Shown: positions 60,748 to 61,445 of the stretch, piece after piece
Layout of the letters: each line of letters opens with the position of its first letter
How positions within the stretch are numbered: the first letter of the stretch is position 1
Assembly (NCBI GenBank): GCA_050302075.1
Contig: JBNLAH010000001.1
Span: forward strand, 12,136-76,135
Source of the DNA: Parachlamydiales bacterium
GTDB taxonomy: Bacteria > Chlamydiota > Chlamydiia > Chlamydiales > SM23-39
DNA length: 64,000 nt
Direction: 5' to 3'
Translations under genes and position numbers: made by a program
The notes under the pieces: generated by a model
Databases searched by the model: none
What the model was told of the DNA's origin: nothing
What the model saw: the letters and a program-made list of their open reading frames with translations, nothing else

Positions 60748-60765
60748 TTCCCACAATTTCCCACA
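60748..60765 (-). promoter_or_regulatory. box pair A: TTCCCACAAT TTCCCACA (two units, 10-bp phase), reverse complement of pair B
   Basis: Read directly from the sequence. Lies in the intergenic region between the divergent 60125-60625 gene and mraZ. Confidence 0.5.
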
Positions 60766-60851
60766 AAAAAATAATAGATCGTAAGTTATTTGATTTTAGT
60801 ATTTTGTCAGTGAGCTTAAGTTTTTTTAGCTTGGGATCACAGAAAAAATAT

Positions 60852-60881
60852 TTGCTAAGTTGGCATGTTGACTGATATCAT
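60852..60881 (+). promoter_or_regulatory. candidate sigma-70-type promoter of the mraZ/dcw operon
   Basis: TTGCTA (60852-60857), an 18-nt spacer, then TATCAT (60876-60881). It abuts box pair B. Confidence 0.3.
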
Positions 60882-60898
60882 GTGGGAAAATGTGGGAA
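60881..60898 (+). promoter_or_regulatory. box pair B: TGTGGGAAAA TGTGGGAA (two exact direct repeats, 10-bp phase), candidate MraZ operator
   Basis: Read directly from the sequence. It contains the TGGGN core at 10-bp periodicity, immediately upstream of the likely mraZ start. Confidence 0.55.
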
Positions 60899-60911
60899 AA
60901 GAGAAAAAACA

Positions 60912-61445
60912 GTGTCCGACTTTTATTTTAGTGGATCATCAACAGCCAAGATAGACGATAAAAACCGTTTCGTCCTACCTCAATCTATGCGCTATGGCTT
61001 AGTTGAGGGTGGTGCGTGTGAATTCACAATTTGTCTAGGGATGGGGGGCTGTCTAAACATTTATAAGAAAAGCGACATTGAGAAAATAGCTAAGAAGTTT
61101 AAAGAAAAGCAACATATTGCTCGTTACCAGAAATTTTTCACGCTGTTTTTTTCCACATTATTCCACACAACATGCGATAAAATTGGAAGGGTTACGCTTC
61201 CACCTCAATTAAAAAAGTTAGTGAATGTTCAAAAAGAAATAGTTGTAGCAGGGGTATTGGATAAAATAGAGCTCTGGCCGAAAGAGGTGTACGATAAGAA
61301 TATGGAAAATCTTTTAAGTGAAGCAGATTCTAATGAAATGTTAGAGATGTCTGAAGAGGTATTTGCTCTTATGCATGATGAGCCTGAAAAGGAAAAAATA
61401 AACGAATCGCATATTAAAAAGGCGCAGGATCTAGTAAGTCAGTGA
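60912..61445 (+). CDS. mraZ: transcriptional regulator MraZ
   Basis: Two SpoVT/AbrB-like halves with the MraZ motifs (IDDKNRFVLPQSMR and CDKIGRVTLPPQLKK), plus an acidic C-terminal tail. The track start GTG 60882 lies inside the repeat boxes. GTG 60912 gives an N-terminus (xSDFYFSGSSTAKID) that aligns with typical MraZ proteins. Confidence 0.85.
   Translation: MSDFYFSGSSTAKIDDKNRFVLPQSMRYGLVEGGACEFTICLGMGGCLNIYKKSDIEKIAKKFKEKQHIARYQKFFTLFFSTLFHTTCDKIGRVTLPPQLKKLVNVQKEIVVAGVLDKIELWPKEVYDKNMENLLSEADSNEMLEMSEEVFALMHDEPEKEKINESHIKKAQDLVSQ
61161..61177 (-). promoter_or_regulatory. box pair C: TTCCACATTA TTCCACA (10-bp phase) inside the mraZ coding sequence
   Basis: Read directly from the sequence. 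It has the same phasing and orientation as pair A, but each unit is one C shorter. Confidence 0.3.

Follow-up and report, generated by a model that had tools for sequence, protein, structure and literature searches.

Inverted pairs of MraZ-type boxes around a chlamydial mraZ promoter: a candidate operator with possible looping repression

MraZ is among the most conserved of bacterial regulators. Published accounts of its operator show only three or four direct repeats side by side, and in other species the protein forms rings of 8-12 subunits. Here, we consider the mraZ gene of a Parachlamydiales bacterium, found in a stretch of 64,000 nucleotides taken from contig JBNLAH010000001.1 (the whole of this stretch is called the window below). 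The gene stands at the head of a dcw cluster (genes for division and the cell wall), and two pairs of boxes, called pair A and pair B, lie around its promoter in opposite orientations. The explanation that fits best is likely, in our view, to be that the two pairs together are an MraZ operator, through which MraZ would repress its own cluster by looping the DNA between them.

The closest described systems provide the standard for comparison. MraZ boxes consist of GTG(G/T) followed by six spacer nucleotides; three such boxes are usual, and Mycoplasma genitalium has four (PMC12957436). In that species, the mapped start of transcription lies inside box 1, and cryo-electron microscopy finds that Lys13, Arg15 and Arg86 read the box, positioned by Asp11 and Asp82, in agreement with mutagenesis (PMC12957436). 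Binding to the boxes is cooperative, and MraZ still binds boxes that have a longer spacer between them (PMC12957436, for the consensus and the cooperativity). In Bacillus subtilis, the mraZ promoter contains three GTGG[A/T]G-N4 repeats, which are required for repression (bioRxiv 10.1101/2022.02.09.479790). The MraZ of Escherichia coli is likewise described as an autorepressor (PMC8475190, PMC12957436); what is said here about its operator comes from the E. coli sequence and from later papers that summarize Eraso et al. (2014). For the chlamydiae, a literature search for an MraZ operator found none. A paper on Waddlia was matched only by the author name Mrazek.

In the window, pair A is the stretch TTCCCACAATTTCCCACAAA (60748-60767), with TCCCAC cores at 60749-54 and 60759-64. 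Pair B is the stretch TGTGGGAAAATGTGGGAAAA (60881-60900), with GTGGGA cores at 60882-87 and 60892-97. A third pair, called pair C, lies within the mraZ coding sequence. The original prediction, made from this DNA alone, had placed three phased pairs around the mraZ start, and all three are indeed present in the sequence.

Pairs A and B are the sole strict 10-bp-phased GTGGGAA pairs within the window. The 8-mer TGTGGGAA is found six times in the 64 kb, where 1.9 copies are expected, and four of these six belong to pairs A and B. If the phased pair GTGGGAANNNGTGGGAA is sought with as many as two mismatches allowed, only A and B are matched in the window, against an expectation of 0.16. A three-box pattern has no match in the window, and neither A nor B is followed by a third contiguous box; the 10-mer that adjoins pair A is a separate palindrome, not a GTGG box. 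One other match to the loose consensus lies at 8741-8756, inside an open reading frame of 317 amino acids, and is probably due to chance.

Related loci permit a stronger statement. Thirty-five chlamydial mraZ loci were fetched (5 from genomes, 18 from metagenomes, and 12 via a protein search that points to roughly 900 chlamydial MraZ loci in all), with MraZ proteins that are 52-97% identical to the query. With the window, these give 36 sequences, of which 29 are non-redundant. Every one of the 36 has an inverted T[CT]CCAC-N4-T[CT]CCAC upstream and a direct GTGG[GAT]A-N4-GTGG[GA]A at the promoter. The upstream pair lies 90-185 bp from the promoter pair, and within each pair, the box-to-box spacing is exactly 10 bp without exception. 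The DNA between the pairs is highly diverged, and most of these spacers cannot be aligned between loci. The comparison of chlamydial mraZ upstream regions that had been proposed as a check finds A and B kept in 35 of 35 related loci.

The same set of sequences gives the background frequency. Throughout the 196 kb of the window and the 35 loci, GTGG[GAT]A-N4-GTGG[GAT]A matches pair A in 36 cases and pair B in 37, with just 7 matches in other places, four of which are pair C in the clade of the window. The pairs exceed what chance would give. Over the 29 non-redundant loci, the box consensus is GTGG[G>A>T]A[A] with a 10-bp period. All 4 x 29 boxes share the GTGG and, at position 6 of the box, the A, as they must, since the detection pattern demanded both; the real evidence is that such a pair exists at both places in every locus. 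In two loci (L005 and L012), the promoter has one more box, making three. A distant MraZ locus that serves as an outgroup (L024, 26% identity) has the ordinary three direct GTGG boxes.

How do these boxes compare with those that are known to bind MraZ? In E. coli, the DNA upstream of mraZ between the -10 element and the ATG reads GTGGGAAATTGTGGGGCAAAGTGGGAATAA. The opening 15 letters of this stretch coincide with pair A in reverse complement, GTGGGAAATTGTGGG. The two systems thus have the same box sequence (GTGGGAAATTGTGGG and onward), the same 10-bp period, and the same location, after the -10 and before the start of mraZ, where the dcw cluster begins. The arrangement, however, differs. The E. 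coli boxes are three direct repeats in a single block that begins about 6 nucleotides after the -10, with no inverted pair within the 240 bp upstream that were read, whereas the chlamydiae have two boxes at the promoter and two inverted boxes 90-185 bp upstream. As a separate observation, the E. coli K-12 sequence (L037, ~193-208) contains a direct GTGGAAAATAGTGAGT about 200 bp upstream of the three known boxes, which is possibly a weak extra pair.

Like the chlamydial arrangement, the M. genitalium operator has four boxes in total and a -10 directly upstream. Its transcription starts within box 1, as is predicted here, its boxes are read by residues that chlamydial MraZ shares, and an oligomer binds it cooperatively, as is proposed for the chlamydial pairs. 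Its boxes, however, are contiguous direct AAAGTG(T/G) repeats lying on four adjacent subunits of an opened ring, while the chlamydial four are divided as 2+2, inverted, and helically phased (PMC12957436). B. subtilis shares the GTGG core, the 6-nucleotide box with its 4-nucleotide spacer, and the location in the mraZ promoter; it differs in having three direct repeats, with no upstream inverted partner described (bioRxiv 10.1101/2022.02.09.479790).

The protein agrees with the boxes. D15, K17, R19, D89 and R93 of the MraZ encoded in the window align with D11, K13, R15, D82 and R86 of M. genitalium MraZ, so that the motifs D15-x-K17-x-R19 and D89-x-x-x-R93 are both present. All five residues are invariant among the chlamydial homologues that were aligned.

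Set against the known class, then, the chlamydial element has the box core GTG(G/T), as GTGG in all four boxes of the window and of the 29 non-redundant loci; it has direct repeats at 10 bp; and it lies at the mraZ promoter (with a predicted start of transcription) at the head of the dcw cluster. It does not have three or four contiguous direct boxes. With only two contiguous boxes per site, it counts as a variant MraZ operator instead of an ordinary one. The assignment of A and B to the MraZ type, first made by likeness to the E. coli boxes, is now sustained by their presence in 35 of 35 related loci and by their identity in sequence with the three E. coli mraZ boxes. It is very probable that both pairs are MraZ sites. 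An operator of 2+2 boxes, inverted and helically phased, would be a new arrangement relative to the MraZ operators that are known.

Another DNA-binding protein might, of course, be the one that reads these boxes. The obvious candidate is DnaA, since dnaA lies 1.3 kb away in the window and is near in most of the loci; the boxes would then mark a replication origin, or sites for some other factor that is not MraZ. A variant box found in some loci, TTTTCCACA, is just one mismatch from the DnaA box TTATCCACA. The prevailing box, TTTCCCACA, however, has two mismatches to that DnaA box. DnaA-like 9-mers (with at most one mismatch to TTATCCACA) number 17 in the window, where 18 are expected, and none lies within 60626-60911. 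The GC skew has no switch, and the cumulative skew rises across the whole window. The boxes are kept in loci where dnaA is not nearby. Further, they form direct pairs with a strict spacing of 10 bp, anchored to the mraZ -10, and they match the E. coli mraZ boxes exactly. The idea of an origin, or of a factor other than MraZ, was set aside as most improbable.

The place of pair B with respect to the promoter suggests what it does. A promoter scan gives the match TTGCTA-18-TATCAT, of sigma-70 type with an upstream TG, which ends at 60881, where box B1 begins. The scan and the list of open reading frames bear out the earlier description of pair B as directly following this element and as covering the GTG of the mechanically called mraZ frame. 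In almost all loci, TGnTAnnaT directly abuts box B1, with a TTGC-type -35 and an A-tract further upstream. The distance from pair B to the start codon, in contrast, varies from 19 to 45 nucleotides across loci. A fixed distance to the -10 together with a variable distance to the start codon ties pair B to the promoter, not to the ribosome binding site or to the coding sequence.

Because pair B abuts the extended -10, MraZ bound there would cover the predicted start of transcription, which fits autorepression. On the two boxes of pair B, MraZ would cover approximately -6 to +10 and so block RNA polymerase. In this way, mraZ-rsmH-ftsL-ftsI would be autorepressed via pair B, as in E. coli, B. subtilis, and Mycoplasma. 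Judged from the sequence, the cluster is probably autoregulated. This is the first regulatory circuit to be predicted for the reduced set of division genes in the chlamydiae, which lack FtsZ.

A second role for the letters of pair B may be mentioned. In many loci, box B2 (GTGGGA) ends 5-9 nucleotides before the start codon (60892-60911 in the window, and equivalents elsewhere). These letters might double as a weak Shine-Dalgarno sequence in the messenger RNA, with the spacing not constant over the range of 19-45 nucleotides just given.

Pair A must be explained as well, and here the distance between the pairs is informative. Across loci, the A-to-B distances are 90, 101, 109, 119-123, 132-135, 143-147, 153-159 and 185 bp, and no locus falls in the gaps between these clusters. 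A periodogram of the distances over 5-30 bp peaks at 11.0 bp. For the 29 non-redundant loci, R at 11.0 bp is 0.66, a value reached by none of 5000 random sets (the null model being uniform distances of 90-185 bp, scanned over periods of 5-16 bp). When the loci are clustered under strict scoring into 21 groups whose spacers share no recognisable similarity, R at 11.0 bp is 0.61 (p ~0.009). Jittering the distances by 6 bp abolishes the signal. As we read the data, the comb is visible alike in the clade that has a T9 tract in rsmH (described below) and in the remaining loci. As a control, pair B was measured against a conserved codon, and these distances form a single peak at 73-99, without a comb.

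A period of this kind is familiar from DNA loops. Repression that depends on loops in vivo, as in the lac and ara systems, has an apparent period near 11 bp. The loops of lac O1-O3, gal OE-OI and ara O2-I1 resemble the chlamydial arrangement in having two sites, one oligomeric repressor, a promoter between the sites, short loops of ~90-210 bp, and a dependence on phase. They differ in that their repressors are unrelated helix-turn-helix dimers or tetramers, and in that the chlamydial phasing is an evolutionary pattern only. The features of a repression loop that can be seen here are the two sites with the same boxes that bracket the -35 and the -10, and a dependence on helical phase as such an evolutionary pattern. 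We know of no loop reported for any MraZ.

By this likeness to the loop period of lac and ara, the 11-bp comb allows pair A to be read as an auxiliary operator, co-occupied with pair B by an MraZ oligomer. Specifically, one MraZ oligomer, or two that touch, would hold A and B together and loop the DNA that contains the promoter. Pair A would then raise the occupancy of pair B, as do the auxiliary operators of the lac, gal, and ara loops. The rings that MraZ forms, its cooperative binding, and its tolerance of longer spacers make such bridging plausible. The original prediction had suggested that the inverted sites interact by wrapping or looping. The interaction now has independent support from the comb, while the loop itself continues to be a matter of inference. 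On balance, we lean somewhat toward the view that pairs A and B work together through a loop. If this is true, it would be the first sign that ring oligomers of MraZ link sites that lie far apart on the DNA.

The main alternative is that A and B are both MraZ sites that act separately, without a loop, where pair B represses the mraZ promoter and pair A serves another promoter, that of the divergent DUF5399-TPR-dnaA operon or of a leftward transcript that is not annotated. Most loci have this operon. The boxes of pair A read GTGGGA leftward, mirroring those of pair B, and left of them the minus strand has promoter-like sites. Natural history has, however, provided a test in those loci where the upstream neighbor has changed. 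Three of these (L005, L010, L015) have no DUF5399, TPR or dnaA gene within 2.5-3 kb upstream. In others, the neighbor is a bestrophin-like gene (L026), unknown genes (L032), a Fic gene (L033), a gene on the same strand (L035), or an ISL3 transposase (L036). Pair A is kept in all of these. As pair A persists beside mraZ after the operon is replaced, it is not an element of that operon, and the earlier suggestion that it might also act on the divergent TPR operon is not supported. Neither a conserved -10 beside pair A on the minus strand, of the kind found at pair B, nor a plus-strand promoter using pair A was found in the related loci. Last, separate action leaves the 11-bp comb between A and B unexplained. 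For these reasons, separate action is considered unlikely.

Against repression through a loop between A and B, in turn, several points must be weighed. The binding, repression, and looping attributed to chlamydial MraZ are read from DNA. The MraZ complexes that are known hold direct repeats on adjacent subunits of a single head-to-tail oligomer. An inverted pair requires a loop that reverses direction (a turn of ~270 degrees in 75-170 bp) or contact between two oligomers, and neither has been seen so far. The loci are related, so the statistics of phasing are not fully independent. The distances 109, 159 and 185 sit 3-4 bp off the comb. Further, approximately 60% of the loci have a phased palindrome beside pair A, and a second protein that binds it could contribute to the phasing in those loci, or cause it.

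This palindrome, with the family consensus GTTGTnnACAAC, is present in 12 of 29 loci at an offset of -14 from pair A if at least 8 of 10 positions must match, and in looser form in others. It is enriched approximately 10-fold in chlamydial mraZ upstream regions. The window has a weaker second copy, GTTATGAACAAA, at 60631-60642. Where a distal copy is found, it lies 106-138 bp further upstream, at distances of 106-107, 116-119, 125-130 and 138, which suggests an 11-bp comb here as well. About 40% of the loci that keep A and B, however, are missing the palindrome, and it is no more than a possible part of the operator. A fuller scheme would include it. Here, MraZ would bridge two inverted half-operators of two boxes each, with the promoter in a loop set by phase, and in part of the phylum an unknown protein that binds the palindrome would join with the same 11-bp phase. 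This fuller scheme falls a little short of an even prospect.

Some loci have additional elements in the same region. Extra copies of the palindrome are found right of pair A or overlapping the mraZ -35. One locus (L033) has a second inverted pair, TACCACTTCATCCCAC, at 1022-1037, which is 121 bp upstream of pair A and beside a palindrome copy, GTCGACAAC; in several more loci, a lone TCCCAC box occupies a comparable position.

As a general site inside the gene, pair C is not supported by the comparison. Among the 36 sequences, it is present only in the window, in two near-identical loci (L006 and L007), and in L025. It therefore cannot be a site for the family as a whole. It lies on codons for a conserved peptide, FFSTLFHTT, and its second box comes from a clade-specific replacement of H by F, giving F-H where H-H is usual. 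Three other loci (L008, L030, L034) have a looser TTCCAC-N4-CACCAC that comes from the codons for His-His.

Might pair C nevertheless be a third working MraZ site in the lineage of the window, a downstream auxiliary operator like lac O2 or gal OI? Without a mismatch, GTGGAATAATGTGGAA agrees with the loose family consensus. L025, whose protein is 76% identical, retains it with one change in 24 nucleotides amid diverged flanks. The sequence uses codons that end in C (TCC, TTC, CAC) in a genome with 33% GC, and its second box is due to the H-to-F replacement noted above. Strongly conserved residues underlie pair C, however, so coding constraint explains much of its conservation. It is missing from the other non-redundant loci, and the evidence amounts to three lineages noticed after the fact. 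A working site here is improbable.

The analysis also bears on where MraZ begins. The mechanically called mraZ frame opens at GTG 60882, three letters that belong to box B1. Homologous proteins line up by their N-termini from codon 60912 onward; one related locus (L003) has an ATG at that position, and a protein that is 76% identical (P0002) is called from the equivalent place. These three lines agree with the original prediction in placing the start at GTG 60912, with GTG 60882 being the candidate operator box itself. A recurrent error in the annotation of MraZ, an over-extended N-terminus, is thereby corrected. In the database, many chlamydial MraZ entries (P0001-P0120) have 180-209 amino acids, where calling at the equivalent of 60912 gives ~160-177. 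As in the window, their surplus length probably arises because translation was called from within or upstream of the operator.

Coordinates of the features discussed are collected in Table 1.

Table 1. Elements and genes around the mraZ promoter, in window coordinates
Feature	Position	Strand	Basis or remark
dnaA - TPR protein - DUF5399 protein block, divergent from mraZ	58222-60625	-	Pfam and comparison of related loci
Quasi-palindrome GTTTTTAACAAC (family consensus GTTGTnnACAAC), 12 bp, 2 nt from pair A	60735..60746	.	Offset -14 from pair A in related loci
Pair A: GTGGGA boxes, two at a 10-bp step, opposite in orientation to pair B; auxiliary MraZ operator (proposed)	60749..60764	-	Sequence; found in 36/36 sequences
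A-tract, UP-element-like, just 5' of the -35	60843..60848	+	Conserved 'gaAAAAa' in profile anchored on pair B
-35 element TTGCTA	60852..60857	+	Promoter scan; TTGC-type hexamer at fixed distance in related loci
Extended -10 TGaTATCAT (TATCAT 60876-81, TG 60873-74)	60873..60881	+	Promoter scan; family consensus TGnTAnnaT
Pair B: two GTGGGA boxes 10 bp apart over the predicted transcription start; proposed primary MraZ operator	60882..60897	+	Sequence; found in 36/36 sequences
mraZ coding sequence	60912..61445	+	177 aa from corrected start GTG 60912; Pfam MraZ E = 9e-19
Pair C GTGGAATAATGTGGAA (plus-strand view TTCCACATTATTCCAC); lineage-specific extra site or codon by-product	61151..61166	-	Within mraZ, codons F-S-T-L-F-H
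rsmH (mraW), second gene of the cluster	61442..62335	+	Pfam Methyltransf_5 E = 7e-108
Small gene at the ftsL position	62332..62682	+	Open reading frame list; no Pfam match; position kept in related loci
ftsI/PBP3-like gene, 5' part	62682..64000	+	Open frame of 441 aa reaching the window end

The window is ~33% GC, and its nearest relatives are uncultured Chlamydiota. In two related loci (L027 and L035), the gene at the ftsI/PBP3-like position has PBP_dimer and Transpeptidase domains. The block of dnaA, TPR, and DUF5399 genes is divergent to mraZ in most of the chlamydial loci compared. We take it to correspond to CT275 (dnaA2)-CT274-CT273 of Chlamydia trachomatis, which lie beside mraW in a genome where mraZ is seemingly missing; the Chlamydiaceae as a family are not known to have mraZ. 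A search of 60400-61500 for RNA families returned only a microRNA match at chance level.

A last observation concerns rsmH, the second gene of the cluster. In 11 related loci (L005, L008, L012, L017, L018, L019, L020, L028 at 1958-1973, L030, L032 and L034), this gene is interrupted at one shared position by a run of exactly nine T (GAY GGT TTT TTT TTG A), which the window is without. The run lies inside the conserved RsmH motif V-D-G-x-x-x-D-L-G-V-S-S, and a full-length protein would require either a -1 frameshift or an additional U in the messenger RNA. The exactness of the run, set in flanks that have diverged, makes it look like a site of programmed recoding or transcriptional slippage, not an error of assembly.

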